A stretch of 21,835 bases of DNA from a virus (taxonomy: Duplodnaviria; Heunggongvirae; Uroviricota; Caudoviricetes), in IMG/VR virus record IMGVR_UViG_2802429217_000001, one strand, 5' to 3'. Position numbers and translations under genes: made by a program. Positions 17,281-21,835 of this stretch are shown piece by piece. Numbering within the stretch: the stretch's first letter is position 1; every line of letters begins with the position of its first letter. Under the pieces are notes generated by a model. That model did no database searches and was not told where the DNA came from. It saw only the letters and a program-made list of their open reading frames with translations.

Positions 17281-17631
17281 TTACTTCAGCCGTTCACGGG
17301 CCGTCTTCGCCTTATGACACGGCCAGCACAGACTCTGCAGATTATTGTCGGCATCAGTGCCGCCATGCGCTTTAGGGATGATGTGGTCAACGGTTTTTGC
17401 TTCACGCACCACGCCAGCACGCTGGCATAACTGACATAAACCTTTGTCACGCTTCAGCACGCGCGCGCGGATAACGTCCCACTTCGAACCATAACCGCGC
17501 TGATGACGGGACTGACCTGGCTTGTATTGCTTCCAGCCTTCGCTTTTGTGGCTTTCGCAGTAGCCTGAAGGATCTGTGGTGGTATGGCGGCAGCCGCGAA
17601 AACGGCAGGCTTTTGGGGTTCGTGGTGGCAT
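17281..17631 (-). CDS. HNH endonuclease (packaging-associated)
   Basis: 116-aa ORF with Cys pairs and the motif ..VDHIIPKAHGGTDADNNLQSLCWPCHKAKT..; located directly upstream of the terminase genes. Confidence 0.85.
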   Translation of the reverse strand: MPPRTPKACRFRGCRHTTTDPSGYCESHKSEGWKQYKPGQSRHQRGYGSKWDVIRARVLKRDKGLCQLCQRAGVVREAKTVDHIIPKAHGGTDADNNLQSLCWPCHKAKTARERLK

Positions 17632-17733
17632 TTAAAGTGGGATCTAACTCTAATAATTTAAAAAATTTAATTGGGTCTTGATATTAATCACATAGACTCA
17701 ATGCTCTTTAGTTCTTACATAGGTGGTTGTATT

Positions 17734-18174
17734 ATGAGTATCCCCAGTTTAGATGTTCATAAAGTTGTTAAGTGCGCGGAGCATAAAAAGGCTTTAGATG
17801 CAATATCTCTCAAACTTAAGAATAACATTATTGACTCAAGCACTGAATGCGATTTTCTTGGCGACACAATAATTTTCAATCAAGATAAAAAAAATAGGTT
17901 AACCCTCAAACTTTCAACATATGAACTAGAACTTATTTTCAAAGAAACACTGCTGATCATTGATGACGCTCCTGTATTGAAGTTTGCTGCCATTGACCCA
18001 ACCGATGAAAATAACAACGAGTTGATTGATTTATTTTTATCCAAAAATGGATTTATTTATATTAGAGAATACAAATCCGAGCAACGTTATGAATATGGCG
18101 ACACTTCTCTATTTTTACATATACTTGACGCTACTCTTAAAGAGCTTAAAGCTGCAAACAAAATATCCTATTAA
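17734..18174 (+). CDS. Hypothetical protein, AT-rich cargo (moron) gene on the opposite strand
   Basis: Plus-strand ORF in a conspicuously AT-rich island between the Rz and HNH genes. Start set at ATG 17734 (SD AGGTGG, about 7-nt spacer; product MSIPSLDVHK..., 146 aa) rather than the track's TTG 17671. No recognisable family. Confidence 0.5.
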   Translation: MSIPSLDVHKVVKCAEHKKALDAISLKLKNNIIDSSTECDFLGDTIIFNQDKKNRLTLKLSTYELELIFKETLLIIDDAPVLKFAAIDPTDENNNELIDLFLSKNGFIYIREYKSEQRYEYGDTSLFLHILDATLKELKAANKISY

Positions 18175-18352
18175 ATAAATTTTTGCTAACATAGCCCCTC
18201 GCCATGACAAGATTTTCTGTTCTAGATGCAAGGGCTATGTGTGAATATCTATAAACAAAAACCCCATCCGGTGATTTTTGTCATTTTTTAGCCATCTCAA
18301 TTGCGGCATCAAAAAGTCGTTCAAGAATAAAATCAGGGTACTGTAATTTTTC

Positions 18353-18595
18353 TTACTCGATATGAAGCTTATAAATTTTTCTTCCCCACTCCCATTTAAA
18401 ATCAAATCCAGAAGCAGAAGGTGCGAAATGTATTTTAGCTTTAGGGTTAGCGTAACCAGCAACAGTCAACACATCAAACTTAAAATCTTGAGGTTTAATA
18501 CGCATAGTCATATCCTTTACCAAGTTCATCATTATTCTTCGCGAGAATAAAACAATGAATAAAATCATTAAAGCATAGACGTTAAATATCCTCAA
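18353..18595 (-). CDS. Small hypothetical protein, start uncertain
   Basis: 80-aa ORF from a TTG start with a hydrophobic N-terminus (ALMILFIVLF). Alternative start at ATG 18505 (SD AAGGA, 7-nt spacer) gives a 50-aa product MRIKPQDFKFDVLTVAGYANPKAKIHFAPSASGFDFKWEWG.... AT-rich. Confidence 0.3.
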   Translation of the reverse strand: MRIFNVYALMILFIVLFSRRIMMNLVKDMTMRIKPQDFKFDVLTVAGYANPKAKIHFAPSASGFDFKWEWGRKIYKLHIE

Positions 18596-18602
18596 AATGT
18601 GA

Positions 18603-19064
18603 TTAGTTGGGACATTGCGTCCTGATATACTCCTGCAAGTAATTCACCTGTGAGGTTATCTTGTCGATTCCACTTCGGAGACGGTAATAATGGAGTTCAG
18701 CATCTGCTGTAAGTCTAGGGCTTTCTCCATCGCCCATGCCGCTGGCTCCGGTCGTTGACTTTGCACAGGTGGCGGCGACTTGCAGGCGCTTACGACCAGC
18801 AGAAACATCAGCACGGAGACTTTCGATAGTCGCGTTAGCATCAGCAAGCTCCTTTGTATATCTGGCATCGAGTTCTGCTACGTCACGTTGACGCTTCTGC
18901 ATATCAGAGATCGTCGCCATAGCCGAATCTAATGCCATAGCGTTTTCGTCGCGCTGTTTTTTGTATTCAATGGCTTTATTGTGGTAATGATTAGCTGACC
19001 AGACAAGACCACCAGCAATACAAGCAATAAACGTTAAAATGAGCGCCCAATAACTCATCTTCAT
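18603..19064 (-). CDS. Rz: Rz i-spanin
   Basis: 153-aa ORF with an N-terminal TM segment (YWALILTFIACIAGGLVW) and ..NHYHNKAIEYKKQRDENA..MQKRQRDVAELDARYTKELADA.., closely resembling lambda Rz as I recall it. Start overlaps the endolysin stop. Confidence 0.85.
   Translation of the reverse strand: MKMSYWALILTFIACIAGGLVWSANHYHNKAIEYKKQRDENAMALDSAMATISDMQKRQRDVAELDARYTKELADANATIESLRADVSAGRKRLQVAATCAKSTTGASGMGDGESPRLTADAELHYYRLRSGIDKITSQVNYLQEYIRTQCPN
18656..18841 (-). CDS. Rz1: Rz1 o-spanin lipoprotein, embedded in Rz in the +1 frame
   Basis: MLTRLSKVSVLMFLLVVSAC-KSPPPVQSQRPEPAAW...: signal peptide with lipobox VSAC followed by a Pro-rich segment. SD AAGGAG 7 nt before ATG 18841. Lies entirely inside Rz. 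Confidence 0.75.
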   Translation of the reverse strand: MLTRLSKVSVLMFLLVVSACKSPPPVQSQRPEPAAWAMEKALDLQQMLNSIITVSEVESTR

Positions 19065-19675: not shown

Positions 19676-19956
19676 TAGTGCCTCAGATGATCAACCAGAC
19701 GTGCAACGTTGCCTCTGACGGCCACCAGCACGGAAAGAAAAATAGTGTTCGCCACGATAATGGGCCATGAGGAATGGGGATAAATCCCACAGAGATAGGC
19801 CAACGGAACAGCACTGTATGTAACAGTAATCAGCCAGGCTAAACGTGAAACCCAAGGACGATGCCGCGAATCACCACGACGATAAAACATCAGAGTAATA
19901 ACAACACAAGCACATAACAGCGCATTTATAGTTGCTGTCGGGTCATTTAGCTCCAC
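19675..19956 (-). CDS. Holin-like / lysis membrane protein (93 aa)
   Basis: Small protein with 2-3 hydrophobic segments, GTG start with SD GGAGG 5-6 nt upstream; overlaps both neighbours. Holin versus antiholin not resolvable. Confidence 0.5.
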   Translation of the reverse strand: MELNDPTATINALLCACVVITLMFYRRGDSRHRPWVSRLAWLITVTYSAVPLAYLCGIYPHSSWPIIVANTIFLSVLVAVRGNVARLVDHLRH

Positions 19957-20329
19957 CTGAACCTCCCCGGCGCGTTATAAGCGCCACCAGCGAACCGATA
20001 TCCTGGTTATTCAGAAACGTCAGGATTTTAACGGCTAAAGCAGAGACGATTACGGCACCAATAGCATCCAGAGGTTTATCACTGTATCCGGTCAAGTTTG
20101 CCAGCTTGGAGCCAACCAACCCAGAGCAAAGGATCCCAGCAATATATGACACGATAAAATATGCCAGTCGACGCGATGCACTCAGATCTGCTGCTGTTGC
20201 TATATAGAATACAGCCCCTGCAAATGCGCCAAATACAACGCCGTAATCAGTTCCGGTCAGCAGTCCATAAATACTAGCGCCCGTTAGGGCTCCACCAGCT
20301 AACCCTGTGCCGGAAATCGGATCGGACAT
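19943..20329 (-). CDS. Putative holin (about 128 aa, multi-TM)
   Basis: MSDPISGTGLAGGALTGASIYGLL... with 3-4 Gly/Ala-rich hydrophobic segments and a charged C-terminus. Start set at ATG 20329 (SD GAGGTGG); the track's start at 20395 would span two hairpins and a U-tract. Confidence 0.55.
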   Translation of the reverse strand: MSDPISGTGLAGGALTGASIYGLLTGTDYGVVFGAFAGAVFYIATAADLSASRRLAYFIVSYIAGILCSGLVGSKLANLTGYSDKPLDAIGAVIVSALAVKILTFLNNQDIGSLVALITRRGGSGGAK

Positions 20330-20380
20330 TAGCCACCTCTTATTGCAGTGAGTCCTCTCAGAAATAGAAATGAGAGGAAT

Positions 20381-20404
20381 AAAAAAGGCCACCATTTGGC
20401 AGCC
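20381..20404 (-). terminator. Rho-independent terminator between the cargo gene and the holin
   Basis: Minus-strand GGCUGCC-AAAU-GGUGGCC (two G-U pairs; plus 20387-20404) followed by U6 (plus a-run 20381-20386). A second hairpin CCUCUCA-N10-UGAGAGG (plus 20354-20377) follows. Confidence 0.5.
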
Positions 20405-20437
20405 ATAGAATTGATGTAATTATAACTAATTCATTAA

Positions 20438-21244
20438 CTATTTCTTAATGATGCTATTTAACATTTCTAATGCAAAAAGCAACATGGAGCTAATAAAATA
20501 TAATATAACCGCACTGGCAATCGCTCCAATTATAGCCTGGACACTCCAATGAAAGTAATTTTTACCATTAATAACAAACTTAACGCTAGGAAACAAAAAG
20601 TCGATAAGCTTAATTATTAATGGAATAGCAAAGCTCCATAAGTTCGAAAACAAAATAAAGATACAAATAAATGATAAAGCAAATGCACCATCGATTGATA
20701 GTTTTGGCGCCAGTTTTGAGGCTGTCCATAAGCTAAGCAAAAAGCCAACTGTCACACCTGAAATCTGGATACTTAACATAGTCCAAGCTGTTCTAAAAAA
20801 TCTAAATTTATTTTTGCACTTGTTAAGTAAATCCTGAATCGTAATCCATAACGAGTCAACCCACTCATTATCTTCCGATGCTACAATCATTGTGCTGCTA
20901 TTTGAATTCCTCTCATCAATTCGTAGCTCCATCCAAGATCCATTCATCCTGTTAGACTGTCGACTTTGATAAGTTTCAATAGTAAAAATTATTTGATCAA
21001 TCCTAGTGGCCTGTCTAAAGTATTTCACAAGCTCACCGATAGAATCAACTTTATATCCCTTACCATCGAACAAAATAAAAAAAACACATTGAGCACAAAC
21101 TTCCCTACTTTCCTTTTGAGCTTGCTCATTCATTTTAACGCAGCGTTCGACAATTGCCGTGCTTAAGCTAATCAAGCTATCTTCATTTATAGAAACACCT
21201 GAAATATTCTTGCTTCTGTAAAAATATGACACTTTCGATTCCAC
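20438..21244 (-). CDS. Hypothetical two-domain membrane protein (268 aa), AT-rich cargo
   Basis: N-terminal roughly 150-aa soluble part and C-terminal multi-TM part (..GVTVGFLLSLW.., ..AFALSFICIFILFSNLWSFAIPLII.., ..AIIGAIASAVILYFISSMLLFAL..). GTG start at 21244 is uncertain. No recognisable family. Confidence 0.5.
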   Translation of the reverse strand: MESKVSYFYRSKNISGVSINEDSLISLSTAIVERCVKMNEQAQKESREVCAQCVFFILFDGKGYKVDSIGELVKYFRQATRIDQIIFTIETYQSRQSNRMNGSWMELRIDERNSNSSTMIVASEDNEWVDSLWITIQDLLNKCKNKFRFFRTAWTMLSIQISGVTVGFLLSLWTASKLAPKLSIDGAFALSFICIFILFSNLWSFAIPLIIKLIDFLFPSVKFVINGKNYFHWSVQAIIGAIASAVILYFISSMLLFALEMLNSIIKK

Positions 21245-21348
21245 TCCGCACCAGTCTCGATTTAGCGCAGGTTAACATAACCACTTCATTGGTAGAAGAA
21301 AAGAACTCTTCTTGTCAGAAAGCTACTGTGATATCCCTAAACCTGCAG

Positions 21349-21376
21349 ATGATACAGAACAAAATTTAAGCATCAA
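21349..21376 (-). promoter_or_regulatory. Candidate sigma70-like promoter for the 268-aa gene
   Basis: Minus strand: TTGATG (plus 21371-21376), 16-nt spacer, TATCAT (plus 21349-21354). A perfect TATAAT lies adjacent at plus 21376-21381. Confidence 0.3.
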
Positions 21377-21409
21377 TTATAGGCGATTTTAAATTCACTT
21401 TACAGTTTA

Positions 21410-21427
21410 GGCTGCCAATTGGCAGCC
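21410..21427. other. Perfect 18-bp palindrome GGCTGCCAATTGGCAGCC
   Basis: 7-bp arms with a 4-bp spacer, 15 nt downstream of the 89-aa gene stop. A near-copy lies at 20387-20404 (see the terminator feature). Confidence 0.5.
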
Positions 21428-21441
21428 GATTGAAGCAGAAA

Positions 21442-21711
21442 TCAATGAGTGCTCATCGATGAATTTTTTTCAGCGCCAATCTCACTCAAAAAAGCAAAAC
21501 CTTTTGACGTTATCTCATTAGCAATCAATCCACCTTCGGCAGATTTGCTTCGTATAACATCGATAAAACCTATATCAGCAAGATCTGAAATAGCAAAATT
21601 AACCTCTTTTGCTGAGAGATGAGGTAATGATGCAGCCTGAATTCTAGAATCCTTTGGCTGCAATTCATTCACTCGACGTAGTATTTCAAGATGGATAGAG
21701 GTCAGTTTCAT
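21442..21711 (-). CDS. Hypothetical small protein (89 aa), possible winged-helix DNA-binding regulator
   Basis: MKLTSIHLEILRRVNELQPKD...LSAKEVNFAISDLADIGFIDVIRSKSAEGGLIANEITSKGFAFL: helix-turn-helix-like segment followed by a Gly-containing wing-like stretch. Strong SD AGGAGA; own promoter upstream. Confidence 0.45.
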   Translation of the reverse strand: MKLTSIHLEILRRVNELQPKDSRIQAASLPHLSAKEVNFAISDLADIGFIDVIRSKSAEGGLIANEITSKGFAFLSEIGAEKNSSMSTH

Positions 21712-21748
21712 AATGTTCTCCTGTTTTTAATGTTGTTTTACAGAAAAC

Positions 21749-21757
21749 ATTATAACA
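21749..21757 (-). promoter_or_regulatory. Extended -10 promoter element (TGtTATAAT) for the 89-aa gene
   Basis: Minus-strand TGTTATAAT (plus 21749-21757), about 38 nt upstream of the ATG. The -35 region is weak. Confidence 0.45.
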
Positions 21758-21803
21758 CATTGATTTTGATGTAGATTGAATAGAAAAAAACCATAATAAA
21801 TAT

Positions 21804-21827
21804 CCTCCGGCATAGCCGGAGGTTTTT
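21804..21827 (+). terminator. Rho-independent terminator hairpin, possibly bidirectional
   Basis: Plus strand CCTCCGGC-ATA-GCCGGAGG followed by TTTTT (21823-21827). The opposite side carries an A7 run and A/T-rich sequence. Confidence 0.55.
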
Positions 21828-21835
21828 CAAATGCG

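Follow-up and report, generated by a model that had tools for sequence, protein, structure and literature searches.

Do two look-alike palindromes on either side of a phage gene signal shared regulation, the boundaries of an acquired segment, or something more ordinary? The question is raised by an unannotated cassette in a 21,835-nt stretch of viral DNA (the window), which belongs to a lambdoid prophage of E. coli whose late genes are encoded on the minus strand. An initial annotation had described near-copies of one palindromic motif flanking a 268-aa gene, and both are present where it placed them (Table 1). P1, GGCTGCCAATTGGCAGCC, is a perfect 18-bp palindrome; P2, GGCCACCATTTGGCAGCC, is identical to it at 15 of 18 bases and differs at 3. 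The repeat grows by only one base, to 19 nt, with a start-to-start spacing of 1023 nt. No further copy with up to 3 mismatches occurs in the 21.8-kb window, and dinucleotide shuffles gave a mean of 0.03 matches, with two matches in none of 100 shuffles. The half-site GGCTGCCAA, searched with up to 1 mismatch, is not in excess in the window and has no extra copies near promoters.

On the minus strand, the order is Q and pR' (beyond the window), a hairpin at the tR' position, an 89-aa gene, P1, 165 nt of spacer, the 268-aa gene, P2, and the holin leader. The neighboring genes, which are Q (PF03589), two holins, the endolysin, and Rz, are all on the same strand.

Table 1. Features of the cargo slot and the start of the lysis genes, in late-strand order (window coordinates).
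Feature	Position	Strand	Description
tR'-position terminator hairpin	21804-21822	-	CCTCCGGC-TAT-GCCGGAGG then AUAUUUAUUAUGGUUUUUUU; upstream edge of cargo
Conserved block, candidate promoter	21749-21781	-	ATTCAATCTACATCAAAATCAATGTGTTATAAT; extended -10 TGtTATAAT (21757-21749); poor -35
89-aa gene, putative first moron	21442-21711	-	ORF; small winged-helix-like protein; phrog_32916 match
P1	21410-21427	-	perfect 7-bp stem, 4-nt loop; 14 nt past the 89-aa stop codon; no U-tract
Spacer between P1 and 268-aa gene	21245-21409	-	promoter-like hexamers weak
268-aa gene, putative second moron	20438-21244	-	N-terminal alpha/beta domain and C-terminal membrane helices
P2, predicted intrinsic terminator	20378-20404	-	stem-loop GGCUGCC-AAAU-GGUGGCC (20404-20387) and UUUUUUAUU (20386-20378)
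Inverted repeat in lysis leader	20354-20377	-	CCUCUCA-N10-UGAGAGG; between P2 and the holin ribosome-binding site; part of the conserved Phage_holin_8 leader
Holin gene (Phage_holin_8)	19943-20329	-	Pfam E=8.5e-35; L001 RefSeq annotation; first lysis-cassette gene, after P2

The downstream copy, P2, had been proposed to be a terminator on the late strand, and our analysis agrees. On that strand GGCUGCCAAAUGGUGGCC is followed by UUUUUUAUU, and the site is terminator-like in the scan. The stem has 7 bp (5 G-C and 2 wobble pairs) with a 4-nt loop, and the U-run (U6, then AUU) starts at the base right after it. The late-strand RNA folds with -11.4 kcal/mol (z = -2.8), compared with -6.4 kcal/mol (z = -0.2) for the other strand. 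The two stem positions that depart from the consensus form G.U/U.G wobbles in the late-strand RNA and C.A mismatches on the other strand. P2 is a poor DNA palindrome, and because of its wobble pairs it appears to be one-directional.

Relatives point the same way. In a hairpin-blind set of loci, found via the holin alone, most variants have a hairpin and a run of five to seven T directly 5' of the conserved holin_8 leader. Some stems at this position are of the form GGCTGCC/GGYGGCC with varying loops, and others are wholly different (GGCCGC/GCGGCC, GGCTCGC/GCGGGCC, GGCCTC/GAGGCC, and GCCCGC/GCGGGC). Among 13 aligned P2 variants, 98.9% of the cells are paired, two pairs are changed on both sides, 6 further pair types occur, and the U.G wobble is kept in 11. 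Only 1 of 500 shuffles reached a pairing conservation this high, for a sample that is small and was partly gathered via the motif itself. In addition, two loci (L137 and L139) with 268-aa homologues that are 78-79% identical, and with neither the 89-aa gene nor P1, are closed by the same hairpin as P2, with a G.U to A-U change in L137. On the strength of the consensus scan, the strand-specific folding, the positional conservation, and the compensatory changes in relatives, we assign P2 as a canonical Rho-independent terminator, at which termination is predicted. We also considered a short sRNA made from the TATAAT (20424-20419) just before P2 and rejected it; the hexamer is poorly kept in L137 and L139, and the product would be only ~32 nt.

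The slot in which the cassette lies has the marks of foreign cargo. G+C content is 0.30-0.40 across 20400-21800 versus 0.47-0.55 in the lysis genes, and the low-GC span runs from ~20405 to ~21803. In cargo-free relatives the tR' hairpin and a P2-type terminator are 16 nt apart, and other relatives have other cargo there, as do SKA5 and 118970_sal3, whose lysis genes are common with the window up to ~20365. The cargo is therefore added DNA that splits a stretch left unbroken in related phages. Many relatives, whether they have other cargo or no cargo, carry a P2-type hairpin ahead of the lysis leader; P2 is therefore not specific to the cassette and is part of a backbone common to phages that lack it. 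In annotation, such hairpins could help to locate where the lysis cassette begins in this phage group.

The cassette is carried by 41 E. coli genomes (41 of 5426 complete genomes, ~0.8%, including APEC O78 and O169:H41 strains; F9792, CP024273, is one carrier) and by 12 viral contigs, all >99% identical, and its homology in E. coli stops at window 21800-21807. The tR' hairpin is also terminator-like in the scan, folds with -16.9 kcal/mol, and matches in position a hairpin that follows pR' and AACGATGGG in L001, SKA5, L075, and L349. Late transcription from the Q-dependent promoter pR', located past the end of the window, is predicted to meet this terminator first. An Rfam scan of 20200-21835 at E <= 1 gave only weak chance matches (Phe_leader, STnc490, and isrD), far below the gathering scores, and no tRNA was found in relatives with cargo ending in ...GGCACCA.

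For the 89-aa protein, the only Pfam matches are to winged-helix families and fall below the cut-off (DUF2513, E=2.4e-4; HTH_45, E=0.026). Pfam gave nothing for the 268-aa protein, PADLOC gave no match for either cargo protein, and PDB sequence searches also gave none. The 89-aa protein has relatives, P0014 and P0019, whose genes are the lone cargo between Q and the holin. P0014, which is 51% identical, is the sole cargo in L349-L352, where the order is tR', the same promoter block, the gene, GGCTGCCATTTGGCGGCC+TTTTCTATTTC, and the holin. In L353 a homologue with 37% identity likewise makes up the whole cargo, which is closed by a different terminator and the holin_8 leader. These relatives do not fit the idea that the 89-aa protein is a dedicated regulator of the 268-aa gene. 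In L349 the promoter block is identical at 31 of 33 positions although the proteins are only 51% identical. The block is a candidate for the moron's own promoter, even though the hexamer scan did not list its extended -10.

P1 is a GC-rich stem-loop that folds with ~-15 kcal/mol on either strand (-16.9 kcal/mol for the 51-nt stretch around it). As had been noticed, it lacks a U-tract: no T-run adjoins it on either strand, the late strand going on with UAAACUGUAAAG and the other with GAUUGAAGCAG, and it is absent from the list of the terminator scan. Its counterpart in L349, GGCTGCCATTTGGCGGCC+TTTTCTATTTC, has one wobble pair and keeps a U-tract that runs into the holin leader. The two hairpins agree at 16 of 18 positions in the alignment, and right after the last stem base L349 ceases to resemble the window. 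On the other side, the 3' UTRs from stop codon to hairpin do not align (14 versus 35 nt). We read P1 as the terminator hairpin of the 89-aa moron, whose U-tract was apparently lost at the seam with the next module. Because the carriers are nearly identical, P1 itself has no variation to test. An independent case is seen in L075, L082, and L087, where the inserted cargo has a copy of terminator plus leader at each end.

Beyond P1, the first 124 nt of the spacer (21409 to ~21286) have no relatives anywhere searched, and from ~21285 on the spacer is homologous to the region upstream of 268-aa homologues. It contains TTGATG-16-TATCAT at 21376-21349 and TATAAT at 21381-21376. No phage record matched the 201-nt stretch 21245-21445, which covers the spacer, P1, and the last bases of the 89-aa gene, and a query with 21245-21800 matched only the 41 cassette-bearing E. 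coli genomes. For the 268-aa gene the start codon is uncertain (GTG 21244, GTG 21232 in RefSeq, or ATG 21133 in the PHROG family), and tblastn with its protein gave no match to phage records. The segment 21409-20405, comprising the spacer and the 268-aa gene, fits exactly between the two hairpins, and the 268-aa family is found elsewhere without the 89-aa gene or P1. The suggestion that the palindromes bound an acquired segment thus stands insofar as they lie at module seams; they are not the ends of the whole low-GC DNA, which reaches ~21803.

We think it likely that two morons are stacked in the slot between Q and the holin, with P2 as the working terminator and P1 as one left without its U-tract where the two were joined. 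The region would be the classical slot in which lambda-type prophages carry morons, bounded by pR'/tR' and the lysis genes, and would hold two of them head to tail, each closed by the same kind of GC-rich terminator hairpin. The observed sequences, positions, relatives, and homology breaks suggest an order of events in which P1 originally closed the 89-aa moron, and the spacer and the 268-aa module were joined on later. With the junction at the last base of the stem, the U-tract of P1 and the lysis leader behind it would have been lost. As a bare hairpin P1 would be expected, by deduction, to terminate poorly, so that transcription from the 89-aa promoter could continue into the 268-aa gene; P1 may at most protect the 3' ends of the 89-aa message. 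In a lysogen, P2 would stop transcripts from the cargo's own promoter(s) ahead of the holin, and during lytic growth Q-modified RNA polymerase from pR' would pass tR', P1, and P2 into the lysis and structural genes. In lambda, terminators after pR' are read through only by Q-modified RNA polymerase. We infer such read-through for this prophage because it has a lambda-type Q (PF03589) and its relatives have the AACGATGGG pause-type leader.

Stacking of this kind would account for an unannotated cassette as two morons with one working terminator, shielding the host from leaky holin expression. It would also provide a base-resolved example of moron stacking, with the seam at the foot of a terminator stem, and would illustrate that a look-alike palindrome pair need not signal regulation or a mobile element. 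The feature would be ordinary biology with a neat seam, leaving the current understanding of phage gene regulation unchanged.

The initial annotation had itself named, as an outcome that would count against a special role for the motif, that it be a common repeat unrelated to the cassette. Searches in related phages and other genomes found it to be common outside the cassette. The motif GGCTGCCA(A/T)TTGGCAGCC appears as a terminator with an A-tract on one side and a T-tract on the other in Bacteroidota, Pseudomonadota, Bacillota, and one archaeal MAG. Genome contigs contain at least 120 sites of the 18-mer. Among the matches listed, which are those outside enterobacteria and which show the motif to be generic but give no prophage count, 55 have both tracts and 86 of 120 have the perfect-stem version, the commonest in unrelated genomes. 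In viral contigs the 18-mer also occurs in unrelated contexts, e.g., before a lambda E-type capsid gene. From these sequences, the 18-mer appears to be a generic terminator hairpin across unrelated bacteria, and sequence identity is therefore a weaker sign of common descent than first appears.

Could the 18-nt hairpin nevertheless be more than a terminator? With its U-tract it precedes holins of three Pfam families (holin_8, holin_2_1, and holin_3_1). Because it is found before three unrelated holin families and a capsid gene, and because the junction falls exactly at the stem base, one may picture it as a portable joint for cargo stacking and lysis-cassette swaps in lambdoid prophages, a reading that we hold to be unlikely. 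If it were true, palindrome-provoked breakage or short-homology recombination at terminator stems would shape where morons land. That the hairpin was an active recombination joint (a short conserved linker or fragile palindrome), whose footprint is the pair of copies flanking the 268-aa segment, strikes us as quite improbable. The fit of 21409-20405 between direct hairpin copies, the end of L349 similarity at the last stem base, and the duplication of terminator plus leader around the cargo in L075 would all be consistent with it. However, lambdoid phages normally have their mosaic joints at gene boundaries, where terminators by nature also sit. Moreover, 18 bp is short for homologous recombination, and there is no recombinase or repeat-specific enzyme nearby. 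A comparison of L004 with L021 bears on both sides of the argument: they have in common the cargo-side flank only, as expected of a joint, but their lysis sides differ from ~12 nt past the stem, i.e., the breakpoint is after the U-tract and not in the stem.

P1 might instead be a DNA operator, bound by a dimer of the 89-aa winged-helix protein and controlling a 268-aa promoter, with the likeness of P2 either incidental or reflecting a second, weaker site. P1 is indeed a perfect DNA dyad, whereas most members of the hairpin family carry wobble pairs, and it lies 5-30 nt upstream of the weak promoter-like hexamers for the 268-aa gene. The sub-cut-off winged-helix matches of the 89-aa protein agree with this, and a homologue of the 268-aa protein with 39% identity likewise has a MarR-like winged-helix gene and a GC hairpin ahead of it. 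Yet the 89-aa relatives, as lone cargo, have no 268-aa gene to regulate, and the dyad does not travel with the regulator gene: the hairpin after the L353 homologue is unrelated, and the L349 counterpart is a plain terminator with a U-tract. P1 is in the usual place for a terminator, just past the stop codon, its perfect stem is the commonest form of this terminator among the matches listed, and its half-site has no further copies near either promoter. We give an operator little chance.

It is similarly doubtful that P1 and P2 are independent GC-rich hairpins that converged on the same favored stem, with no shared history or link to cassette assembly. The recurrence of the 18-mer across bacterial phyla and in unrelated viral contexts would allow for this. 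In a simulation, however, the probability of 15/18 identity between two random hairpins (7-bp GC-rich stem, 4-nt loop) was 2.6e-4, and the window has only ~10 hairpins of that class, both strands counted; the background terminators in the fetched genome loci (13 hairpins) are too few for an empirical null. In addition, both copies occupy the single slot in which related prophages normally have a hairpin of this type as the last element ahead of the lysis leader, and P1 has its positional counterpart with a U-tract in L349. Terminal repeats, a target duplication, or ends of a mobile element were rejected, given that the low-GC cargo reaches ~375 nt past P1 to tR', no transposase or integrase is in or beside the cassette, and P2 belongs to the backbone of cassette-free phages.

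By its published definition, a moron has a promoter at one end and a factor-independent terminator at the other, deviates in G+C content, and interrupts a region contiguous in relatives (PMC3714127). The layout here matches that definition, with a candidate promoter and with P2 as the terminator at its far end. Like the morons of lambdoid phages (Juhala et al. 2000; PMC3714127), it interrupts a region contiguous in relatives, has low G+C, and has a candidate promoter and a terminator. Its site downstream of pR' is a known moron location (PMC4104026). Unlike the described morons, it would consist of two that are stacked, with the first terminator reduced to a bare hairpin without a U-tract, and it is known here from sequence. 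As with lambda tR' and the terminators downstream of it, hairpin-plus-U terminators lie on the late strand between pR' and the lysis genes. In contrast to lambda, the leader from pR' to the first terminator is short in this phage group (~50-70 nt in relatives), with a P2-type terminator directly next, and the hairpin sequences of the window are unrelated to lambda tR'. Generic bidirectional intrinsic terminators have an identical 18-mer with an A-tract and a T-tract in many unrelated bacteria; P2 differs in being one-directional through its wobble pairs, and P1 in having neither tract.

The AgvB and AsxR anti-sRNAs of O157 prophages (PMC4104026) are likewise short conserved elements with a Rho-independent terminator, and they lie downstream of pR', in the gap between a moron's coding sequence and the phage gene after it. 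We rejected an identity with them: the family is marked by a conserved ~42-nt 3' region with its terminator, and the window shows no likeness to the published sequences and matched no Rfam family beyond the weak chance hits. Their terminator, TTGCCCGAACCCATTCGGGCATTTT, is unrelated to the hairpins of the window. Furthermore, AsxR is encoded antisense to its moron, stx2AB (PMC4104026), whereas P2 would work on the late strand.

The window is an E. coli lambdoid prophage with its late genes on the minus strand. The 1.5 kb surrounding the two palindromes, upstream P1 and downstream P2, is found at >99% identity in 41 of 5426 complete E. coli genomes. In one of these, L001, the RefSeq order is Q antiterminator, two hypothetical genes, two holins, and endolysin, with HNH endonuclease, terminase, and portal farther downstream. 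The Q upstream of the cargo (the 89-aa and 268-aa genes) is lambda-type, and the Q-dependent late promoter pR', with its AACGATGGG-type initial transcribed sequence, lies just past the window end, as seen in L001, SKA5, L075, and L349.

Features of the cargo slot and lysis region, with coordinates in the window
Feature	Coordinates	Strand	Remarks
Terminator hairpin at the tR' position	21822-21804	late	
Block with candidate extended -10 promoter	21757-21749	late	TGtTATAAT
89-aa gene	21711-21442	late	
P1	21427-21410	late	14 nt past the 89-aa stop codon
Spacer	between P1 and 268-aa gene	late	165 nt
268-aa gene	21244-20438	late	
P2	20404-20387	late	followed by UUUUUUAUU
Leader inverted repeat	20377-20354	late	
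Holin start	20329	late	Phage_holin_8, E = 8.5e-35
Rz gene	18603-19064		Pfam match in window

Both palindromes lie where the initial annotation had placed them, P1 (GGCTGCCAATTGGCAGCC, 21410-21427) being a perfect 18-bp palindrome from which P2 (GGCCACCATTTGGCAGCC, 20387-20404) differs at three positions. The repeat reaches one base past the 18-mer, with a spacing of 1023 nt. Because the window holds no further copy with ≤3 mismatches (shuffles average 0.03 matches) and only ~10 hairpins with a 7-bp GC-rich stem and 4-nt loop, two random members of which would share 15 of 18 positions with a probability of 2.6e-4, the likeness is genuine and not a chance outcome of base composition. The two hairpins are of one type, each placed after one cargo gene, P2 with a U-tract and P1 without.

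The proposal that the downstream copy is a terminator is supported by a scan that called it terminator-like on the late strand only, by its fold, and by a hairpin at the same position in relatives. The two non-consensus stem positions of P2 form G.U and U.G wobbles in the late-strand RNA and C.A mismatches on the opposite strand, with fold energies of -11.4 and -6.4 kcal/mol, respectively. When viral contigs were scanned for the motif and the matches mapped by tblastn, GGCTGCCAAWTGG(C/U)(G/A)GCC and its U-run lay 50-70 nt ahead of holin_8 genes, even in phages with holin identity as low as 60% and Q identity as low as 35%; the same hairpin and U-run also occur ahead of P21-type (holin_2_1) and lambda S-type (holin_3_1) holins. 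Cargo-free phages have it 16 nt past the tR' hairpin, as the second of two tandem terminators; where a different cargo is present, it stands at the end of that cargo. To avoid motif circularity, 80 loci were gathered via the holin protein alone. In these the leader TTTCCCCTCAnnnCTGAGAGG...AAGAGGGGGCTAAATG is conserved and usually has a hairpin plus T5-7 directly 5' of it; no such hairpin was seen in SKA5-type loci. Its stem is either GGCTGCC/GGYGGCC (loops AAAT, AATT, ATAT, GATT, ACCA, or AAGT) or an unrelated one (GGCCGC/GCGGCC, GGCTCGC/GCGGGCC, GGCCTC/GAGGCC, or GCCCGC/GCGGGC). Across 13 aligned variants, a small and partly motif-selected sample, 98.9% of cells pair, two pairs change on both sides, and 11 retain the U.G wobble responsible for the strand specificity of the stem. 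We conclude that P2 is the terminator of the slot, not of the 268-aa cargo.

No close relative of the 89-aa protein was found outside the cassette (89-aa gene, P1, spacer, and 268-aa gene), and Pfam gave only sub-threshold winged-helix matches. An exhaustive profile search recovered two distant relatives (51% and 37% identity). The first, P0014, occurs in L349-L352 as the sole cargo, flanked by a lambda-type Q and a lambda S-type holin, in the order tR', ATTCAATCTACGTCAAAATCAATGTGTTACAAT (31/33 identity to window 21781-21749), gene, 35 nt, GGCTGCCATTTGGCGGCC, TTTTCTATTTC, and lysis leader. The second, in L353, is also lone cargo and is closed by a different terminator and the holin_8 leader. 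These lone-cargo relatives make the 89-aa family a recurrent single moron of the slot, normally with a full terminator at its end. In pairwise alignment, P1 pairs with the L349 hairpin at 16 of 18 positions; similarity stops at the last stem base, and opposite the L349 U-tract the window reads TAAACTG. We infer that P1 is the 89-aa moron's own terminator hairpin, cut at the stem foot by the junction with the spacer and 268-aa module. Lacking a U-tract, P1 is not a canonical terminator. An independent precedent for slot elements duplicated around a later insertion is provided by L075, L082, and L087, where hairpin, U-tract, and holin_8 leader stand on both flanks of a ~380-nt non-coding insert (L075 8497-9000).

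The 268-aa gene family travels without P1. Homologues of 78-79% identity (L137, L139) follow a DNA methyltransferase gene, have neither the 89-aa gene nor P1, and end in the same 3' UTR and P2-type hairpin, with a G.U to A-U change in L137. At 52% identity, the terminator closing the gene is a different one and a P21-type holin comes next; at 39%, the homologues have a defence-island-like setting. Homology between the window and L139 begins only ~55 nt before the start codon (window ~21285), and the 124 nt from there to P1 had no relatives, other than in carriers of the cassette, in the E. coli genomes or phage records searched.

The initial annotation had also suggested, as one of two options, that the palindromes bound the acquired segment, which holds for P2, at one edge, but not for P1. 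G+C is 0.30-0.40 from ~20400 to ~21800, compared with ~0.5 in the lysis genes; the match to cassette-bearing genomes stops at 21800-21807; and in SKA5 and 118970_sal3 the lysis genes are shared up to ~20365 but the slot carries a different 85-aa gene. The acquired DNA therefore spans P2 to tR', with P1 internal.

Pure convergence of P1 and P2 is a real possibility, since many unrelated bacteria use the 18-mer as a generic terminator between an A-tract and a T-tract (>120 sites, at least 55 with both tracts), although the two share one slot and P1 has a counterpart in L349. The data are also compatible with the hairpin acting as an active recombination joint. P1 might instead be an operator for the 89-aa winged-helix protein, as its perfect dyad and the weak promoter hexamers lying downstream of it would allow; however, 89-aa relatives occur without any 268-aa gene to regulate, one has an unrelated hairpin, and a place 14 nt past a stop codon is typical of a terminator. 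A mobile-element terminal repeat was rejected, there being no recombinase and the repeats not bounding the whole cargo, as was an AgvB/AsxR-type sRNA, for which there was neither sequence likeness nor Rfam support.

If P1 is a truncated terminator, the junction would have severed it at the stem foot, and the incoming spacer and 268-aa module would have brought, or kept, its own complete terminator, P2. In the lysogen, the cargo's own promoter, in the conserved block ahead of the first cargo gene, would transcribe the cargo and P2 would halt the transcript ahead of the holin; P1 would terminate poorly, and both genes may then be served by the first promoter, with P1 capping the 3' ends of the short message. 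Upon induction, Q-modified polymerase from pR' would ignore tR', P1, and P2. These steps draw on established lambda late transcription and morons (PMC3714127; PMC4104026). The cassette fits the definition of morons, and the arrangement that of intrinsic terminators, but for the missing U-tract of P1. It is a new instance of a known arrangement, of low surprise value, that can aid annotation and illustrate how morons are stacked.

Several other observations concern the slot and its surroundings. The 33-nt block ATTCAATCTACATCAAAATCAATGTGTTATAAT (window 21749-21781; L349 2427-2459) keeps its 31/33 identity where the encoded proteins share just 51%, and L004-type and L021-type phages have a fragment of it, AATCTACATC, ahead of their P2-type hairpin; the block is either a strongly constrained promoter/regulatory site or slot backbone. 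The tR'-position hairpin is CCTCCGGC-TAT-GCCGGAGG in the window and CCTCGC-TATT-GCGAGG in L001 (7495-7525), an otherwise near-identical cassette carrier, and the window's version (21800-21835) matches other lambda-like phages (PhiR63_2, Lambda_ev058) at 98%; a mosaic joint sits exactly at this terminator.

A lambda E-type major capsid gene, too, has a P2-type hairpin and U-run upstream: in L010 (5380-5397), L020, L053, and L076 the identical hairpin GGCTGCCAATTGGCGGCC, followed by U5, lies 24 nt before the gene, and this type of terminator hairpin is therefore reused in the late operon, far from the lysis slot. A second low-GC island (0.30-0.36; 17632-18602), between Rz and the HNH endonuclease gene (17281-17631), differs in content from that of L001, and its ORFs (17671-18174, +; 18235-18462, -; 18353-18595, -) had no Pfam matches; it is probably another cargo slot. 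Within the L075 insert lie GGGAGGCACCCGGCACCA and an internal hairpin (GCCTGCcgtaaaaaGCAGGC+T7) resembling a terminator; ARAGORN found no tRNA, and the insert is possibly a small RNA gene.

In the 268-aa protein, membrane helices accompany an N-terminal alpha/beta domain that is modelled with confidence and has no more than generic fold matches; PADLOC has no model for the family. In other prophages, family members directly follow an N6/N4 DNA methyltransferase gene (L137 1856-2911; L139 1760-2806; L144 1854-2927; L146 403-1476), and in L147 a 39% homologue adjoins GmrSD_N, HEPN, TumE, and MarR-like winged-helix genes, neighbours hinting that the family may act in phage defence or exclusion. 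The gene is called as just 164 aa in some E. coli genomes (L355 3269-3763; L358 3280-3774), and in L355 the downstream genes begin 11 nt earlier than in intact loci; part of the population apparently shows decay of this second moron next to an intact 89-aa gene.

The structure known as sdi in lambda S gates holin translation by a pairing switch. The leader inverted repeat, which separates the P2 U-tract from the holin ribosome-binding site, reads CCUCUCA-N10-UGAGAGG and is conserved in holin_8 leaders as CCCCTCA-N3-5-CTGAGAGG. Because the 5' arm of the repeat can also pair with the holin Shine-Dalgarno (GAGGUG/GAGGGG), the repeat could alternate between two pairings and thereby control holin translation in the manner of sdi. 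The late-strand leader stem of most relatives contains a C.A mismatch that would form a G.U pair on the opposite strand.
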